Part shown: positions 4,402-9,474 of the stretch, one piece after another
Layout: every line of letters begins with the position of its first letter
How positions within the stretch are numbered: the stretch's first letter is position 1
Source of the DNA: an uncultured Candidatus Saccharibacteria bacterium
Lineage (GTDB): Bacteria > Patescibacteriota > Minisyncoccia > Phycocordibacterales > WO2-35-19
Assembly (NCBI GenBank): GCA_964630525.1
Contig: CAZVUY010000003.1
Span: 1 to 46,698 of the forward strand
Direction of reading: 5' to 3'
DNA: 46,698 nucleotides
Translations under genes and position numbers: made by a program
The notes under the pieces: generated by a model
The model's input: only the letters and a program-made list of their open reading frames with translations
Told to the model about the DNA's origin: nothing
The model's database searches: none

Positions 4402-5580
4402 AGAATAAAGAGAAATGGTCTCGGCGAGCATTTTTTCGAAAGAGAAAAAATTGGTCACGGTGTTTTTGAGTGCTTGACCAAATTCTTTTTGCTTTTCTTT
4501 ATGGTCAAGCAAGTAAATGATTGCCTCGGCTATCTCTTTTGGATTTCGAGGGTGAACCAAGATTCCGTTTTGCATATCTTTGATTATTTCCGGTATACCA
4601 CCAACGGCGGTGGCAATGGTTGGTATGCCGCAAAAACCGGCTTCTAACACCACGAAAGGCAAGTTTTCTGTTCGTGAGGGGACCAGTATTAGGTCTGTGC
4701 CCGGTAATATTTTTTTGGCATTTTCGATTTGGCCTACAAATCTCACAGATTCCCGAAGTCCTAGGTTTAAAACTAGCTCTTCGAGCTTGGCTTTTTGTTC
4801 ACCTCCACCAACGATGTAGTAGATTATTTTTTTTCTGATTTGAGTGGGGAGTAGGGCAATGCCTCGGATAGCGATATCGATCCCTTTGTTGGGGTGCAAT
4901 TCTCCGATGGTCAAGATTATTTTCTGGTCAGTCTCCTCTCTTTTTAAAATTTCTGCGGATTCTTTTTTAGTAAGTGGTTTAAATTTCTCGATCCCATTAT
5001 GGATGACGGTTATTTTTTGGTTAATAAATGGTAGCCAAGCAATGTCTCGTTTGGTTTTTTCTGAAACAGCGATGGTGAGGTCGCAAATAGCGACCGTCAA
5101 ATAATGAGCAATATAAAAAATTATTTTGGAGAGTACTGATCGGTGGTCCTCGTTGAATGCCCAACCGTGGCTTGTAAAGATACATTTAGGAATTGAAAGA
5201 TGGAAAGATGGAAAGATGGAGGATTTAATTTTGAGATAAAGTATTGCAAGGGAACCCAAAAAGCCGATCTTGGAGGAGTTGAGGTGAAGGACATTTGGTT
5301 TTTCTTCTCTTATTATTTTTATTAGTTCCTTTATTGTTTGAATATCTTTCTTTAAATTTATTTCTCTTTCAGAACTACCAAGTTCTATTGTTCTAATTTT
5401 TGCTTCTTTCAGTTTTTCAATCAAAGTATTTCCTTCTTTGGTGCCACAAGCCACCAATACTTCAAATTGGTCTTTTGGCAGTCTGGTGGCCAGGTTGTAA
5501 ACATACTTTTGGGCGCCACCGAAATTACCCTTGGTTATCAGAAAGAGGATTTTTTTTCGACTTTCCATACAGGAGATCAT
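4399..5580 (-). CDS. Glycosyltransferase family 4
   Basis: 393 aa. GT4 C-terminal motif TENLPFVVLEAGFCGIPTIATAVGGIPEII, and N-terminal KILFLITKGNFGGAQKY. Confidence 0.85.
   Translation of the reverse strand: MISCMESRKKILFLITKGNFGGAQKYVYNLATRLPKDQFEVLVACGTKEGNTLIEKLKEAKIRTIELGSSEREINLKKDIQTIKELIKIIREEKPNVLHLNSSKIGFLGSLAILYLKIKSSIFPSFHLSIPKCIFTSHGWAFNEDHRSVLSKIIFYIAHYLTVAICDLTIAVSEKTKRDIAWLPFINQKITVIHNGIEKFKPLTKKESAEILKREETDQKIILTIGELHPNKGIDIAIRGIALLPTQIRKKIIYYIVGGGEQKAKLEELVLNLGLRESVRFVGQIENAKKILPGTDLILVPSRTENLPFVVLEAGFCGIPTIATAVGGIPEIIKDMQNGILVHPRNPKEIAEAIIYLLDHKEKQKEFGQALKNTVTNFFSFEKMLAETISLYS
5195..5218. repeat. Perfect tandem octamer GAAAGATG x3 inside the GT4 CDS
   Basis: Read directly. 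It encodes SIFPSFHLS on the minus strand, and the unit length is not a multiple of 3. Confidence 0.9.
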
Positions 5581-5615
5581 TTTGCCATAAATTGATTAAA
5601 ATTGCCAGTTGTTGT

Positions 5616-6956
5616 ATGATGTTTTGGTATATGATCAGATCAGGCAAAAGAGAGACAGCCATCCTATTTTTCGGAGATATCGTACTTCTCTATTTCTCAC
5701 TTTGGTTGGCGTTGGCAGCCCGTTATTTCTCGCTACCATCGGTAGAGACTCTTTCTTTGCACCTCTATCCTTTTAGCATCATTATCGCCGTTTGGATGCT
5801 GGTATATTTTATCTCTGGTCTTTATGAGAAGCACACCCTTCTTTTGAAGAGTCGCTTACCGATAACGGTCTTTAATGCTCAGATTGCCAATATTTTTTTG
5901 GCAGTCCTCTTTTTCTACTTCATCCCTTATTTTGGGATCGCCCCCAAGACCAATCTTTTTGTTTATCTGCTCTTCTCTTTTTGTTTGGTATTGCTCTGGC
6001 GGATCTATGGCGACCGCTTCTTGCACCCACTCGTTAAACAGAAGGGGATTATTATAGGTAGCGGTGAAGAAATGAAAGAACTTTTAGAGGAAGTAAACAA
6101 CAATCCTCGCTATGGTCTCGAGTTTATATCTTCTGTCGATCTCAATCGGGTAGCTGGAGTCGATTTTAATCAAGAGATACTTTCGCGGGTCTACGCTGAA
6201 GAGGTACAGATCGTGGCGGTGGATCTTAAGAATGAAAAAGTCGAGCCGATCTTGCCGCATCTCTACAATCTGATATTTTCTAATGTGAAGTTTATCGACA
6301 TGTATAAGATTTATGAAGATTTGTTTGATCGAGTACCGCTCTCGCTAGTACGCTATAACTGGTTTTTGGAAAACATTTCTACCGAATCAAGGGTTGCGTA
6401 CGATGTGCTCAAAAGGATGATGGATATTGTACTATCGGCTTTGGTAGGAGCCGTCTCTCTTATTTTTTATCCAGTCGTTTATTTATTGATTAAATTTGAT
6501 GACAGAGGAAATGTCTTTTTTGAACAGGAGAGGATTGGTAAAAACAACAAGATTATCCGAGTGAAAAAATTTAGAAGCATGAAAGAAGATGGTAGCAAAA
6601 ATATTACCAAGACAGGAAAGTGGTTGCGCAAGCTGCGTATTGATGAGCTGCCTCAACTATGGAGTGTTTTGAAAGGTGATATGTCGATGATCGGTCCGAG
6701 ACCGGAAATTCCTTCTTTGGTTAGGCACTATGAAGACGAGATTCCTTATTACAATGTGCGGCACCTGATCAAGCCTGGGCTTTCTGGTTGGGCTCAGCTT
6801 TATCACAAAGACCCACCAAAGGTGGCTGCTGATAGTGAAAAAACTCGTCGCAAACTCTCTTATGATCTTTACTACATCAAAAATCGTTCGTTCATGCTCG
6901 ATCTCAAAATTGCCCTTAAAACCATCAAAGCGCTACTTTCAAGGAGCGGGGTTTAA
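5616..6956 (+). CDS. Polyprenyl-phosphate hexose-1-phosphate transferase (WbaP/EpsL-type bacterial sugar transferase)
   Basis: C-terminal motif KRMMDIVLSALVGAVSLIFYP...FRSM...DELPQLWSVLKGDMSMIGPRPE, preceded by N-terminal TM helices. The start was moved from the track's 5400 to ATG 5616 (5631 is also possible) because 5400-5580 overlaps the divergent GT4. Confidence 0.85.
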   Translation: MMFWYMIRSGKRETAILFFGDIVLLYFSLWLALAARYFSLPSVETLSLHLYPFSIIIAVWMLVYFISGLYEKHTLLLKSRLPITVFNAQIANIFLAVLFFYFIPYFGIAPKTNLFVYLLFSFCLVLLWRIYGDRFLHPLVKQKGIIIGSGEEMKELLEEVNNNPRYGLEFISSVDLNRVAGVDFNQEILSRVYAEEVQIVAVDLKNEKVEPILPHLYNLIFSNVKFIDMYKIYEDLFDRVPLSLVRYNWFLENISTESRVAYDVLKRMMDIVLSALVGAVSLIFYPVVYLLIKFDDRGNVFFEQERIGKNNKIIRVKKFRSMKEDGSKNITKTGKWLRKLRIDELPQLWSVLKGDMSMIGPRPEIPSLVRHYEDEIPYYNVRHLIKPGLSGWAQLYHKDPPKVAADSEKTRRKLSYDLYYIKNRSFMLDLKIALKTIKALLSRSGV

Positions 6957-6962
6957 TGTTTC

Positions 6963-7006
6963 CTAATCTCCCTCCGACTCCCTCTTTACCTTAAAGAGGG
7001 AGTGAC
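6963..7006 (-). repeat. 44-bp palindrome-containing repeat, copy A (reverse orientation)
   Basis: The reverse complement, GTCACTCCCTCTTTAAGGTAAAGAGGGAGTCGGAGGGAGATTAG, matches copies C and D. Internal 9-bp stem: CCCTCTTTA with TAAAGAGGG. Confidence 0.85.
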
Positions 7007-7063
7007 CCACTTTTGAGTTTGACATAGTTATTAAACTATGTTACCTTAATAGTGGAGGTCGAA

Positions 7064-7273
7064 ATGACTAAAGAATAAGTTGTAGCTGAACGAGAACGAT
7101 TGCAAAACAGGATTGAGCGCGCTCGCGGTGTACTTTATTACAGGGAGGAAGCACTGAAGAAGCTTCAGAGGCAAATCTGTGAACACCCTGGGGTAAAGTG
7201 GAAACCCGGATGTCGTCGGGCCAGCTTCAATTGTCCGTACTGCGGTTTGTACGAAACGGACAGTAATAATTAG
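7064..7273 (+). pseudogene. Small Cys-rich (zinc-ribbon-like) ORF with an in-frame TAA at codon 5. An alternative intact 57-aa reading starts at TTG 7100.
   Basis: GGAGG at 7054-7058 lies 5 nt before ATG 7064. The reading is ATG ACT AAA GAA TAA, and the same frame then continues as VVAERERLQNRIERARGVLYYREEALKKLQRQICEHPGVKWKPGCRRASFNCPYCGLYETDSNN to TAG 7271-7273. That TAG overlaps the RBS of the next gene. Confidence 0.3.
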
Positions 7274-7282
7274 GAGGCACGC

Positions 7283-7528
7283 ATGCAAGAATGTACGTGC
7301 AAGGGGCGAAACAAGAATTGTGTGTTTTGTGATGGTTCTGGTTTCGTGGTCAATAGAATCATGACGCCGCAAGTTCCAAGTTTTGGGGTCGAAAGAGTTC
7401 CGGAGAAGGGACCAAAGAAAGGTAGGAAAATGTTGCAGTGTCCCGAATGCAAACAGCTCATTTGGGAGTTGCGGCTCGCCAGGCACCGAAGAAAAGTGCA
7501 TGGAGTACAGATTGAGGGTGGGGGATGA
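7283..7528 (+). CDS. Small zinc-finger protein (CxxCxGxG-like plus C2H2-like motifs), function unknown
   Basis: 81 aa. A strong AGGAGG (7272-7277) lies 5 nt upstream of the ATG. Motifs CVFCDGSG and CPECKQLIWELRLARHRRKVH. It sits in a locally GC-rich segment. Confidence 0.6.
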   Translation: MQECTCKGRNKNCVFCDGSGFVVNRIMTPQVPSFGVERVPEKGPKKGRKMLQCPECKQLIWELRLARHRRKVHGVQIEGGG

Positions 7529-7563
7529 AAATTCCTCACCTTTTTGTATTTTTTAACTATTCT

Positions 7564-7601
7564 CTAATCCCCCTAACTCCTTTTATCTTAAAGGGGGAAC
7601 C
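7564..7601 (-). repeat. Divergent copy B of the palindromic repeat (reverse orientation)
   Basis: CTAATCCCCCTAACTCCTTTTATCTTAAAGGGGGAACC aligns with copy A, sharing CTAATC...CTTAAAG(A/G)GGG. Confidence 0.6.
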
Positions 7602-7639
7602 GCGCAATTCGTTGTTTGCTCGCAGAATAGTAAATGTGA

Positions 7640-7683
7640 GTCACCCTCTCTTTAAGGTAAAGAGAGGGTCGGGGAGAGATTAG
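7640..7683 (+). repeat. 44-bp palindromic repeat, copy C (forward), immediately upstream of the DUF559 gene
   Basis: Sequence GTCACCCTCTCTTTAAGGTAAAGAGAGGGTCGGGGAGAGATTAG. One frame reads HPLFKVKRGSGRD-stop, parallel to the DUF559 C-terminus. Confidence 0.85.
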
Positions 7684-7696
7684 GTATAATGAGAGG

Positions 7697-8122
7697 ATGG
7701 TGGATAATAAATTCCTCTACAACCACAAAACTCTAAAAGAAAGACGGCGAGAGCTCAGAAAAAACCAAACTCCTGCGGAAAAATTGTTATGGAAACATAT
7801 CTGCAAAGATAAAATTTTTGGGCTAAGATTTTTGCGACAATATGGAGTAGGTCCATACATCCTAGATTTTTATTGCGCCAAGATTCGACTAGGGATCGAG
7901 CTTGATGGGGAAGTTCATAAAGAAAAGGAAAGAAAAATTTACAATAAAGACAGGGAAGAATATTTAAAAACTTTAGACATACATATCATCAGATTTTGGA
8001 ATAATGAAGTTCTTAAAGATATAAAAGGTGTACTAAATAAATTACATAATAAAATTAAATCACTAATTAAAAATAGTAGTCACCCTCCCTTTAAAGTAAA
8101 GGGAGGGTCGGGGAGGGATTAG
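7697..8122 (+). CDS. DUF559 (Vsr/restriction-endonuclease-like fold) endonuclease domain protein
   Basis: 141 aa with NQTPAEKLLWKHI...FLRQYGVGPYILDFYCAKIRLGIELDGEVH...IIRFWNNEV. The last 13 codons (HPPFKVKGGSGRD) are encoded by repeat copy D. Confidence 0.85.
   Translation: MVDNKFLYNHKTLKERRRELRKNQTPAEKLLWKHICKDKIFGLRFLRQYGVGPYILDFYCAKIRLGIELDGEVHKEKERKIYNKDREEYLKTLDIHIIRFWNNEVLKDIKGVLNKLHNKIKSLIKNSSHPPFKVKGGSGRD
8079..8122 (+). repeat. 44-bp palindromic repeat, copy D (forward), forming the 3' end of the DUF559 CDS
   Basis: Sequence GTCACCCTCCCTTTAAAGTAAAGGGAGGGTCGGGGAGGGATTAG. Its terminal TAG is the stop codon. Confidence 0.85.
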
Positions 8123-8172
8123 AAAAGGAAAAGAAGAGGAGTAGTTAGAAAAAATGAGGATATTGTGCTAGG

Positions 8173-9474
8173 ATGCAGACCATGAGTAAATACAGATTCT
8201 GGTCAGTTATCATTATTGCAGCTTCGATCTGGGCCGGTTTTTTTGTTTTTAGCAATCCAAAATTAAAGTTAGGATTGGATCTTTCGGGCGGTACTCATCT
8301 GGTCTACCGAGCTGATATTGCTCAGATCCCTAGTGATCAAGTTTCTGATTCCATGGATTCCTTGCGAGACACGATCGAGCGGCGAGTCAATCTTTTTGGT
8401 GTCTCCGAACCAATTGTTCAAGTGGAGCAGGGAGGGCTTTTTGGTAGCGAAAAAGAGCAGCGATTGATAGTTGAACTGCCCGGGGTCACTGATGTAAATG
8501 AGGCGATCAAGAAAATTGGTGAGACTCCGACTCTCGAATTCAGACTACTCTCCAAAGAAGCGCAGGAAAAACTAAGCAATGGCGGTGGGTCAAGTGAGCT
8601 CGATAATCAAACAGCCGCCTCAATGTTTCTGTCAACCGGACTAACCGGCCGTATGTTGGAGAAAGCTTCAATTCAATTTGATCAAAATCTAGGCAATCGA
8701 CCGGTCATTGGTCTAAAATTCAATCAAGAAGGTTCGGATTTGTTCGCTAAGATCACTAGAGAAAATATTGGCAGTGTGCTGGGTATCTTCTTGGATGGCG
8801 ATTTGATTCAAGCACCGTTTATTCGTGAAGAAATAGATGGTGGTCAAGCGGTGATCACTGGCGACTTTACGCCCGACGAAGCCAGAGCGGTAGTGAGAGA
8901 TTTGAATTATGGTGCTTTACCGATGCCAATTTCTCTCATCAGCACCGAGACTATTGGGGCCACCTTGGGCAATGAAGCGGTAGAGGCGAGTATCAAGGCT
9001 GGTATCTATGCTTTTATTGTGATCGCCTTATTTTTGATCGGTTGGTACCGCCTACCGGGATTGGTGGCCACTTTGGCACTCGCGATTTATACGGTAGCGA
9101 ATCTCTTGCTTTTCCAGTGGTTCTCGATCACTCTCACTGCAGCGGGGATTGCTGGTTTTATCTTGTCTATTGGTATGGCGGTAGACGCCAATATTTTGAT
9201 TTTTGAACGCACCAAAGAAGAATTGAAAAAAGGCAAAGACAAGGCAGCTGCTCTTCGCGAGGGTTTTCATCGAGCCTGGAGCTCTATTCGTGATTCCAAC
9301 TTTTCTAGCATTATAACGGCTGTTATTTTGTATTACTTTGCTTCGACTCCGATGATCAAAGGTTTTGCTCTCGTTTTCTTTATCGGTGTTCTGGTATCGA
9401 TGTTTAGTGCCATCACTGCTTCCAGGACCATCTTGTTTGCGTTGAGTCGGAGTGGAATTAAAAATAATGAATAG
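8173..9474 (+). CDS. secD: Protein translocase subunit SecD
   Basis: 433 aa. Motifs LGLDLSGGTHLVY, a periplasmic domain, and C-terminal TM bundle AGIAGFILSIGMAVDANILIFER. Confidence 0.9.
   Translation: MQTMSKYRFWSVIIIAASIWAGFFVFSNPKLKLGLDLSGGTHLVYRADIAQIPSDQVSDSMDSLRDTIERRVNLFGVSEPIVQVEQGGLFGSEKEQRLIVELPGVTDVNEAIKKIGETPTLEFRLLSKEAQEKLSNGGGSSELDNQTAASMFLSTGLTGRMLEKASIQFDQNLGNRPVIGLKFNQEGSDLFAKITRENIGSVLGIFLDGDLIQAPFIREEIDGGQAVITGDFTPDEARAVVRDLNYGALPMPISLISTETIGATLGNEAVEASIKAGIYAFIVIALFLIGWYRLPGLVATLALAIYTVANLLLFQWFSITLTAAGIAGFILSIGMAVDANILIFERTKEELKKGKDKAAALREGFHRAWSSIRDSNFSSIITAVILYYFASTPMIKGFALVFFIGVLVSMFSAITASRTILFALSRSGIKNNE

Follow-up and report, generated by a model that had tools for sequence, protein, structure and literature searches.

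The locus considered here raises the question of why a spacer between two genes of a small Patescibacterial genome should hold a nuclease gene, a pair of zinc-finger open reading frames (ORFs) and four copies of one palindromic repeat, and whether these parts have anything to do with each other. The DNA analysed (the window) is the whole stretch of 46,698 nucleotides of contig CAZVUY010000003.1, part of a genome (G000) of 727 kb and approximately 43% G+C in 9 contigs, to which we refer as C1, C2 and so on. Positions 6957-8126 of the window are a strain-variable 1.2-kb insert in the short sugar-transferase/secD spacer of this Patescibacteria (Zambryskibacteria-type) genome, and the insert consists of copies of a dispersed repeat together with the genes lodged between them, namely a gene of the DUF559 family and a separate two-ORF zinc-finger cargo operon. 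A reading made from the letters alone (the sequence-only reading) had taken the whole for a small selfish or mobile cassette, the repeat being perhaps the recognition or recombination site of the nuclease. That idea gains from our finding that the insert is strain-variable and that its repeat is enriched beside DUF559 genes and linked to them in number, and it loses two of its arguments, since the G+C contrast proved weak and the tail of the nuclease gene is no relic of other DUF559 genes. Below we describe the repeat, its tie to DUF559 and its behaviour in related genomes, and we tentatively favour the view that the DUF559 protein may act on the folded repeat.

The four repeats of approximately 45 nt that had been marked here, A and B reversed and C and D forward, were re-found at the same positions by repeat and profile searches, with A and B bracketing the two zinc-finger ORFs and C and D the DUF559 ORF (Table 1). 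In the repeat search C and D form a direct pair of 52 nt (87% identity) and A and C an inverted pair of 53 nt (85%), with no such match in 100 shuffles, and identity between the flanking copies (A versus D, C versus D) is 87-91%. The repeat is nevertheless not a peculiarity of this locus but a dispersed family: a profile (nhmmer) made from the four copies, which finds its own members at E values of 1e-16 to 2.5e-11, detects about 21 copies on five contigs of the genome as solos, head-to-head doublets and in-frame copies within genes. Profile searching was needed for this, an exact 27-nt pattern having misleadingly matched C and D only. There are two subtypes. T1 reads ...AGTCAC, pyrimidine (Y) arm, TTTA-nnn-TAAA, purine (R) arm, TC or CT, a G plus the mirrored arm, and ATTAG; T2 reads ...TGCGCGGTT, CCCCCTTTA-nnn-TAAAGGGGG, TTAG, GGGGG and ATTA. 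Doublets are composed of a reversed T2, a partly conserved spacer of approximately 45 nt and a forward T1, and besides B and C, which are joined head to head in just this way by the conserved spacer, five others lie at C5:67749/67820, C3:122240/122308, C4:42378/42453, C4:57525/57601 and C1:179028/179092. The first of these (C5:67749-67880) occupies the spacer between two divergent genes, one DnaE/PolC-like and one RNase HII-like, and the copy ends there adjoin or supply the start codon (GATTATG); this suggests that the elements bring along, or displace, promoter sequences of leaderless mRNAs.

Each repeat had been credited with an internal palindrome. The hairpin is certainly present, A, C and D forming 12-bp hairpins with fold z scores of -4.2 to -5.0, but it is only a part of the structure, because a third segment, again of purines, mirrors the purine arm. 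The full order is pyrimidine arm, 3-nt loop, complementary purine arm, 2-5-nt linker, mirrored purine arm and a GATTAG end. In repeat C the purine arm AGAGAGGG is separated by tcg from its mirror GGGAGAGA, and in repeat A, seen from the other strand, one reads CTAATC, mirror strand, linker, the Y arm CTCCCTCTTTA, loop and R arm. Repeat B is decayed, with a mutated purine arm and no folding (z -1.0), and its orthologue in the close relative L053 is intact. Across 44 distinct copies, drawn from the window's own genome and from relatives, the arms differ from copy to copy yet remain complementary, with changes on both sides in 8 of the 11 pairs, 71 compensatory cells against 23 +/- 5.6 after shuffling (0/500), and 92.6% paired cells against 50-67% when the partner is slid. 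The third block, which is the mirror image of the purine arm and neither a direct nor an inverted repeat of it, varies with its own arm: the longest mirror match averages 6.61, as opposed to 5.07 +/- 0.24 after permutation of the third blocks between copies (0/10,000), and the mirror match exceeds the direct match in 14 of 18 informative combinations and falls below it in 2. Replication-type processes yield direct or inverted repeats, not mirror repeats. The only reading we know for such an arrangement is an intrastrand purine-motif triplex, predicted to form from the Y arm, the R arm and the mirrored R arm, with the pyrimidine-motif equivalent on the other strand. A strict scan for the three-block motif returned 23 instances in the genome and none in 5 shuffled genomes, and it brought out at least two further motif families near the TMECO consensus. 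The repeat is accordingly a structured, covarying three-strand element that spreads.

This architecture has a precedent in the BoxC/PIT/TM(ECO) repeats (Bergler 1992; Hoyne et al. 2000; Holder et al. 2015, PMC4666352), in which a C/T arm, a 3-6-nt loop and a G/A arm are followed by a second loop of approximately 3 nt and a G/A block mirroring the first (class II purine motif), and which likewise occur in tens of dispersed copies, varying in number between close relatives, at unstable loci. These repeats are present in hundreds of genomes and have been linked to genomic instability, no mobility protein having been found for them; for TMECO, described as always intergenic, triplex formation has been shown (PMC4666352). 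The repeats studied here have the hairpin arms (up to 12 bp with a 3-nt loop, in an 11-pair covariation model) and the mirrored second purine block after a short loop. Their sequence is another one, CCCTCTCTTTA-nnn-TAAAGAGAGGG-TCG-GGGAGAGA-TTAG in place of CCCTCNCCC...GGGNGAGGG, and the TMECO consensus (CCCTCNCCC N3-6 GGGNGAGGG N3 GGGNGAGGG) is not matched by T1 or T2, whose stems are different and whose arms are extended by an invariant TTTA/TAAA, with conserved end motifs (GTCAC..., ...GATTAG). They further differ in that the two subtypes are combined into doublets of approximately 125 nt, that copies sit inside coding genes, and that they are tied to DUF559 genes both physically and numerically. 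Because the stems differ, T1 and T2 share the architecture with TMECO and do not belong to the same sequence family, and by its predicted fold we regard the repeat as the Patescibacterial (Zambryskibacteria) version of the BoxC/PIT/TM intrastrand-triplex motif. Families near the TMECO consensus also occur around other DUF559 paralogues. The copies do not qualify as miniature inverted-repeat transposable elements or insertion sequences: the termini CTAATC...GATTAG are present, but the stems differ between copies and no target-site duplication came to light.

The tie to DUF559 was measured first as adjacency. For 40 free-standing DUF559 genes from 16 genomes of the family, a three-block motif lies within 130 nt on at least one side in 35 and on both sides in 21, whereas among 732 other genes of the genome 17 have such a motif upstream and 18 downstream (approximately 2%). 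The upstream copy is reversed in 25 of the 40 and the downstream copy forward in 24, so that the mirror strands face outward. The association extends across phyla. Of 80 DUF559 loci sampled from Patescibacteria, Nitrospirota, Thermodesulfobacteriota, Bacteroidota, Chloroflexota, Gammaproteobacteria and other groups, 71 carry such a motif no more than 130 nt from the gene, as compared with 16 of 816 control windows taken from the same loci at least 400 nt away. An enrichment next to DUF559 genes, which the sequence-only reading had proposed to look for, is thus found in the family as well as beyond it. In an earlier survey DUF559 was itself enriched among genes flanked by inverted repeats, with an odds ratio of 14.3 (PMC9881135).

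The association also appears in the numbers. Repeats in the relatives were counted with one IUPAC pattern that covers the T1/T2 type only and does not enforce complementarity (reversed control, 0-3), and across 39 genomes of the family the hairpin count follows the DUF559 count with a Spearman rho of 0.85 (p 1e-11), with 0.88 inside one genus of 17 genomes and 0.83 at genus level. Six of the seven genomes that lack DUF559 have 0-2 hairpins, and 12 genomes from other families of the order have 0-1, 11 of them being without DUF559 and one (G025) having a single gene. Finally, the type of repeat follows the type of nuclease. When repeat types are laid on the DUF559 tree there are 10 label changes, compared with 21.6 after shuffling (0/200), and one supported clade (95/90) holds all the TTAnnnTAA and TTACAACAA types; one genome (G002) possesses at least four genes of the window clade on four different contigs, all with T1/T2 flanks. 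The second DUF559 gene of the window's own genome (C1:154530-154868) is bracketed by an inverted pair of TMECO-like type, of which there are at least two further copies. Nuclease clades therefore go with repeat types, and repeat load scales with the number of DUF559 genes. Neither of the outcomes that the sequence-only reading had set against itself, a cassette conserved in all relatives and repeats indifferent to DUF559, was encountered.

The variability of the insert was established by comparing the sugar-transferase-to-secD interval in 19 related genomes, with genes called in the relatives by the ORF rules of this analysis. In 12 of the 19 the site is cleanly empty: 7-90 nt separate the secD start from the sugar-transferase stop codon, which delimits the insertion site on the left, and there is neither a repeat nor a DUF559 gene between them. 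In these empty sites, whose spacers are not alignable, there are no repeat remnants and no recognisable conserved target. The occupied sites represent five genera (G000, G018, G009, G017 and G002) and carry different cargo, the DUF559 orthologues of the four other genera having 65-76% identity and being framed by repeats. In G009 the order is reversed T1, forward T2, TATAAT, DUF559, forward T1; G018 has this order with a coiled-coil ORF between the reversed T1 and the forward T2, G017 has it with a GC-rich 88-aa ORF and extra copies, and the G002 site is cut by a contig end. The outermost copies of the whole insert are always of type T1, reversed at the left end and forward at the right, and the slot after the left copy is taken by unrelated cargo, the zinc-finger pair being that of the window's own lineage. 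One genus shows both states, G018 being occupied and G005 empty. The insert is gained or lost as a whole among these relatives.

Two genomes have another small gene in the same spacer without repeats: in G008 it is a Cys-containing ORF of 131 aa that runs on the opposite strand (L038 4553-4948), and in G021 a membrane ORF of 70 aa (L047 4745-4957). Small accessory genes in general land in this spacer. In G009 a GC-rich segment of approximately 220 nt with local inverted repeats (L039 4720-4935) lies between the DUF559 cassette and secD; it holds no ORF of note and has no Rfam match, and could be a small structured RNA or other cargo.

Occupied sites also show signs of turnover. The stem of copy A reads CTCCCTC in the window, CCCTCTC in L053 and CCCCTTC in L052, each version having its counterpart in both the purine arm and the mirror strand, with no change in the conserved letters around it, and such concerted changes in three strands suggest replacement or gene conversion, with other copies as donors, more than point mutation. 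In L053 an extra doublet (forward T1 plus reversed T2) stands between the DUF559 gene and copy D. The last 313 nt of the DUF559 gene are identical in the window and L053, with neighbouring segments at 76-98%, and this mosaic suggests a recent recombination tract that would end inside the nuclease gene. Aligned over 7765-8190, this metagenomic relative matches copy D and the 3' part of the DUF559 gene at 99-100% identity, while the first 70 nt of the gene and the B-C doublet are 79-86% identical, and secD is approximately 96% identical. At another site, the spacer upstream of a gene beginning MSGHNKWS, which we take to be YebC-like, the window's own genome has a DUF559 gene with T3-type repeats (C1:154400-154960) and G002 has a window-clade DUF559 gene with T1-type repeats (L003, on its own contig C69), the two proteins being 44% and 70% identical to that of the window.

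Copies of the repeat are also read as protein. Seven lie within long ORFs of the genome. T1/T2 copies stand in frame at C1:32461, C1:131325, C1:191016, C3:49392 and C5:7840, their hosts being LigA, RsmA/KsgA-like, RluD-like, SecA (in the C-terminal tail) and TruB-like proteins, and they give rise to peptides such as LIPPxPFTLKGE or NPPNPLYFKGG. Comparison with homologues, which covers LigA and UvrB, reveals in-frame insertions that the homologues do not have: by alignment to solved structures the LigA copy adds 14 residues, and in UvrB a reversed plus forward doublet adds 40 residues between VRPI and GQI. At this UvrB site, among 27 genomes of the family, 6 have a 7-residue linker, 8 have triplex-type doublets or singlets, which belong to different families in different genomes, and 10 have other hairpin inserts. 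Both comparisons imply that repeats enter new places and can be read through. This UvrB site, which lies at C2:140090-140200 in the window's own genome, is a hot spot in the family (loci L160-L189), the unrelated hairpin inserts of other genomes being 76-193 nt long. An ORF resembling reverse transcriptases (YADD motif; C1:193083-194192) ends inside a T1 copy, with the tail ...ELPPLYRKEETGRRLEKTGEN.

As for the nuclease itself, the window protein matches PF04480 over residues 13-120 with 104.7 bits (cut-off 20.6) and PDB entry 3HRL with an E value of 7.6e-17, and is predicted to be a Vsr-fold PD-(D/E)XK nuclease of the DUF559 family. Residues D57, E68, D70, H74, R86 and R99 are invariant in 20 paralogues, the acidic residues and the histidine among them being the probable catalytic ones. 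DUF559 has been grouped with Vsr and with the homing endonuclease I-Bth0305I (PMC3424549), and we obtained weak PHROG matches to homing and HNH endonuclease families. Genomes of 0.7 Mb carry up to 8 DUF559 paralogues, and between genera DUF559 and SecD have diverged to a similar degree.

The DUF559 core ends near 8077, and the protein is completed by the repeat. Copy D provides the last 13 codons and the TAG stop (HPPFKVKGGSGRD and stop), and the same frame reads HPLFKVKRGSGRD and stop in C and HSLFKVKRESEGD and stop in the reversed A, all as the sequence-only reading had quoted them. Its suggestion that these peptides are relics of other DUF559 C-termini must be abandoned, since in the orthologues of four other genera the ORF ends at the TAG of TAGTCAC, which is the 5' edge of the repeat, and the 13-codon tail, common to the window and L053, is therefore a lineage-specific read-through. 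Its alternative of a portable coding module does not hold in the sense of a DUF559 C-terminal remnant and survives in another sense, copies being translated in frame within housekeeping genes. At the other end of the gene, the TATAAT that had been noticed 6 nt upstream of the ATG at 7697 is matched by a TATAAT 6-8 nt upstream of the ATG in the orthologues of G009, G017, G018 and L053. This conserved spacing points to a leaderless mRNA, and the DUF559 gene probably has its own leaderless promoter, whose -10 box adjoins the GATTAG end of repeat C. A strict sigma-70 scan found no full promoter at the locus; the promoter assignments were made by eye and are backed by conservation. Coordinates are collected in Table 1.

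Table 1. The insert in the sugar-transferase/secD spacer and its flanks (positions in the window).
Feature	Position	Strand	Basis
Sugar transferase (Bac_transf), left flank	5400-6956	+	Pfam PF02397, E 1.4e-54
Repeat A, T1 reversed, outer left end	6956-7019 (core 6963-7006)	-	nhmmer E 1e-16; 12-bp hairpin, z -4.6
Promoter-like TTGACA, 17 nt, TGnTACCTT; ribosome-binding site GGAGG	7019-7024, 7039-7047; 7054-7058	+	Read by eye
ZnF1, Cys-rich, zinc-ribbon-like	7064-7273	+	ORF list; open frame from TTG 7100 (7100-7273), 57 aa
ZnF2, Cys-rich, 81 aa	7283-7528	+	ORF list
Intrinsic terminator of cargo operon, 13-bp stem then T run	7514-7543 (to 7553)	+	Terminator scan
Repeat B, T2 reversed, decayed	7558-7616	-	nhmmer E 2.5e-11
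Repeat C, T1 forward	7627-7689 (core 7640-7683)	+	nhmmer E 2e-16; hairpin z -5.0
TATAAT -10 box	7685-7690	+	Sequence reading
DUF559 nuclease gene, 141 aa	7697-8122	+	PF04480, E 3e-30
Repeat D, T1 forward, outer right end	8066-8126 (core 8079-8122)	+	nhmmer E 1.4e-15; hairpin z -4.2
secD, with extended -10 TGcTAGGAT	8166-8174 (-10); gene to 9474	+	Pfam SecD families

The cargo operon appears to be a self-contained unit with a promoter-like sequence, a ribosome-binding site and a terminator of its own. In L053, L052, G018 and G017, too, a TTGAC comes after the reversed T1 copy in the corresponding position, and the operon's terminator stands just before copy B, so that the triplex repeats are not needed as a terminator there. 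ZnF1 has an in-frame TAA (7076-7078) five codons past a well-placed ATG with its GGAGG; L053, in which the codon is GAA, has an intact orthologue of 69 aa, and the window's gene is either a fresh pseudogene or is restarted in translation at the TTG at 7100. It has no match in Pfam, PADLOC or the PHROGs. ZnF2, preceded by a strong AGGAGG, carries a CxCx5CxxCxGxG plus CxxC...HxxxxH zinc finger; among 5.8 billion proteins it has only 3 homologues, of 74-93% identity and all from the same locus, and its sole family match is a weak one to Mut7-C below the cut-off. The cargo ORFs at this site in the different genomes likewise match no PADLOC or PHROG family, and Rfam has no match at the locus or in the relatives' cargo segments. 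The zinc-finger segment had been thought GC-rich. The counts given for it (31/60 and 33/60, against 17/60 elsewhere) are right, and yet at 48% it is no outlier in a genome of 43 +/- 5%, because 12% of the genome windows are as high; a GC island as a sign of foreign origin is ruled out by this spread. The more atypical segment is the DUF559 core with 31% G+C. For secD, starts at 8173 and 8182 come into question, and comparison of orthologues favours the ATG at 8182 (MSKYRFW). Elsewhere in the window, positions 1-1487 comprise the 3' 600 positions of the 23S ribosomal RNA (1-1215) and the 5S ribosomal RNA gene (1382-1487).

How might a nuclease and a repeat come to keep such company? The view we tentatively favour, though we would not call it probable outright, is that the folded repeat is the substrate of the DUF559 protein and that its copying is left to host repair. 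The protein would recognise a hairpin or triplex that is extruded when the DNA is supercoiled or single-stranded, and would nick or cut at that place; host recombination repair would then copy repeats, doublets and gene-plus-repeat units into the broken sites. Copying by repair could explain how the repeat spreads, how orthologous copies exchange their stems and how small cargo is captured; the 13-codon tail would be a by-product of reading into copy D.

Single-copy-type nuclease genes bracketed by short hairpin repeats are reportedly found in the REP/REPIN-RAYT systems, or REPtrons, said to have been described by Nunvar in 2010 and by Bertels and Rainey in 2011. The REPtron enzyme, RAYT, is an IS200/IS605-type Y1 (HUH) transposase, and its repeats occur as singlets and head-to-head doublets. 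The bracketed nuclease gene, the dispersed singlets and doublets, the pairing of repeat families with enzyme clades and a presence that is vertically persistent yet patchy are all shared with our locus. In contrast, the enzyme here is a Vsr-fold PD-(D/E)XK protein of approximately 120 aa and not a Y1/HUH protein, so that we can speak of an analogue of the REPtrons only and not of a member; in addition the repeat has a third mirror strand, there are several gene-plus-repeat pairs per genome, and cargo genes lie between the copies. The translated copies have another parallel in the Rickettsia palindromic elements, palindromic repeats that reportedly lie in frame in housekeeping genes and are credited to Ogata et al. 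in 2000. Extra surface loops are translated in both cases (14 aa in LigA and 40 aa in UvrB here). The differences are in sequence and host phylum, in the nuclease gene that the same family frames here, and in the VRPI/GQI site of UvrB, where the repeat family varies from genome to genome. Vsr-like (EDxHD) homing endonucleases such as I-Bth0305I (PDB 3R3P, PMC3424549) resemble the DUF559 gene in their fold clade, in presence or absence at a fixed site and in atypical composition; unlike them, it is intergenic and flanked by structured repeats, with no intron or intein and no target recognisable in the empty sites, and we do not class it as a homing endonuclease gene. Our literature search found no paper connecting DUF559 with triplex-motif repeats, the nearest being a table row in PMC9881135 and the triplex-motif paper PMC4666352. 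What is already known would thus be the architecture of the repeat (BoxC/PIT/TM) and the nesting of a nuclease in its own repeat (RAYT/REPIN); the link to DUF559 appears to be new.

Several observations weigh against an action of DUF559 on the repeat. A nuclease of 115-140 aa is unlikely to be a complete transposase by itself. Four occupied loci showed no target-site duplication, and as the flanking copies are also non-identical (87-91%) no recent transposition is evident. In the window itself the direct flanks of the nuclease gene, C and D, have the same orientation and are not inverted, the inverted partner of D being B or A. Occupied genomes are scattered on the SecD tree, where the best tree requires 5 changes and the well-supported branches force 1, and this tree is too weakly resolved to speak against one gain followed by several losses. 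The correlation of counts is to some extent inherent, since 1-3 flanking copies come with every DUF559 gene, although the ratio of 4-10 hairpins per gene exceeds that contribution, and a shared load of mobile DNA may lie behind it as a confounder. There are also outright exceptions. G033 has 13 hairpins and G036 a triplex-motif insert in UvrB, both without any DUF559 gene; a third triplex-motif family of the window's own genome (CCTCTCC type, 6 copies) has no DUF559 partner; and G012 has 35 T1/T2 repeats, of which none among the matches listed is on a contig with a standalone DUF559 gene, its DUF559 gene at L011 being flanked by another repeat type. Finally, as their work is cited in PMC4666352, Hoyne and Maher saw no influence of PIT elements in vivo, whether on replication, on transcription or on conjugation. 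The exceptions in these three genomes, together with the partnerless family, keep two other explanations alive.

The better of the two, which we consider unlikely but deserving of attention, makes the nuclease a passenger: the repeats would be mobile or recombinogenic in their own right, through host recombination or some other enzyme, and DUF559 would be merely their commonest cargo, with no activity on them. It draws on the unrelated ORFs without family matches that lie between copies at the same locus across genomes, on solos and doublets far more numerous than DUF559 genes, on the exceptions just listed, and on the proneness of triplex-motif loci to recombination with no protein known (PMC4666352). 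It leaves unexplained why a single protein family should be bracketed in 71 of 80 cases across phyla, why nuclease clades match repeat types, why genomes without DUF559 are nearly devoid of the repeats, and why the catalytic residues stay invariant in up to 8 paralogues of a 0.7-Mb genome.

Rather less probable is a caretaker role, in which DUF559 would be a Vsr-related host repair nuclease that processes repeat hairpins or triplexes, repeat-rich genomes keeping more of it and the adjacency reflecting regulatory coupling. A dose relation between repeats and genes would be expected from this, all copies are intact with conserved active-site residues, the fold family includes the repair enzyme Vsr (PMC3424549), and triplex motifs are a source of instability (PMC4666352). 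An enzyme acting in trans, however, needs neither bracketing by inverted copies of the matching type nor joint presence or absence with its flanks at a given site, divergent paralogues that each have their own repeat type are better understood as cognate pairs, and the composition of the DUF559 core is atypical.

We find it improbable that the repeats are regulatory hairpins, that is REP-like terminators, mRNA stabilisers or promoter carriers in an old, vertically inherited region that has been lost several times and is now immobile. Copies do occur at every gene boundary of the locus, forward copies adjoin -10 boxes and reversed T1 copies adjoin TTGAC, and both the single gain compatible with the SecD tree and the similar divergence of DUF559 and SecD between genera would suit such a history. 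On the other hand, the cargo operon has a canonical terminator just before copy B, forward copies have no T run, copies within LigA, UvrB, SecA and other genes cannot terminate, and for PIT elements the work cited in PMC4666352 gives neither promoter nor terminator activity. A mirror third strand would be useless in a terminator, and yet it covaries; nor do stem swapping between close strains and empty sites without repeat remnants agree with immobility. Programmed inversion between the nested inverted copies (A/D, B/C), toggling DUF559 and cargo, is suggested by their arrangement and by the listing of DUF559 among predicted inversion targets (PMC9881135), but is very improbable indeed given that neither the ORF list nor Pfam shows a recombinase gene at or near the locus, that the arms are 85-91% alike with different stems, and that the orientation is the same in all five orthologous loci and two close strains.

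Returning to a nuclease that acts on its repeat, a stronger form of the idea, which we consider doubtful, is that DUF559 is structure-specific for the intrastrand triplex of its own repeat type and drives copying by break-induced gene conversion, the doublets of Patescibacteria docking swappable cassettes and loops. If true, a second nuclease-repeat symbiosis would have evolved independently of REPIN/RAYT, and the orphan BoxC/PIT/TM repeats would be explained. The doublets would be docking points at which promoter-to-terminator cassettes (the zinc-finger pair, the coiled-coil ORF and others) and translated loops are swapped, in other words a miniature cassette platform that is free of an integrase.

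Intrastrand-triplex repeats have been known since the 1990s without a partner, and DUF559, one of the larger nuclease families of 'unknown function', is now a candidate for that partner. The 39-genome family offers a clean natural experiment on the matter, with its tiny genomes, conserved synteny, empty and occupied alleles, dose relation and matching of clades to repeat types. Should the link prove enzymatic, it would constitute a new nuclease-repeat system analogous to RAYT/REPIN and would assign a function to DUF559, the YcjD protein of E. coli included. It would also explain the translated loops in essential proteins of the Candidate Phyla Radiation (CPR) and the shuffling of their small accessory genes.

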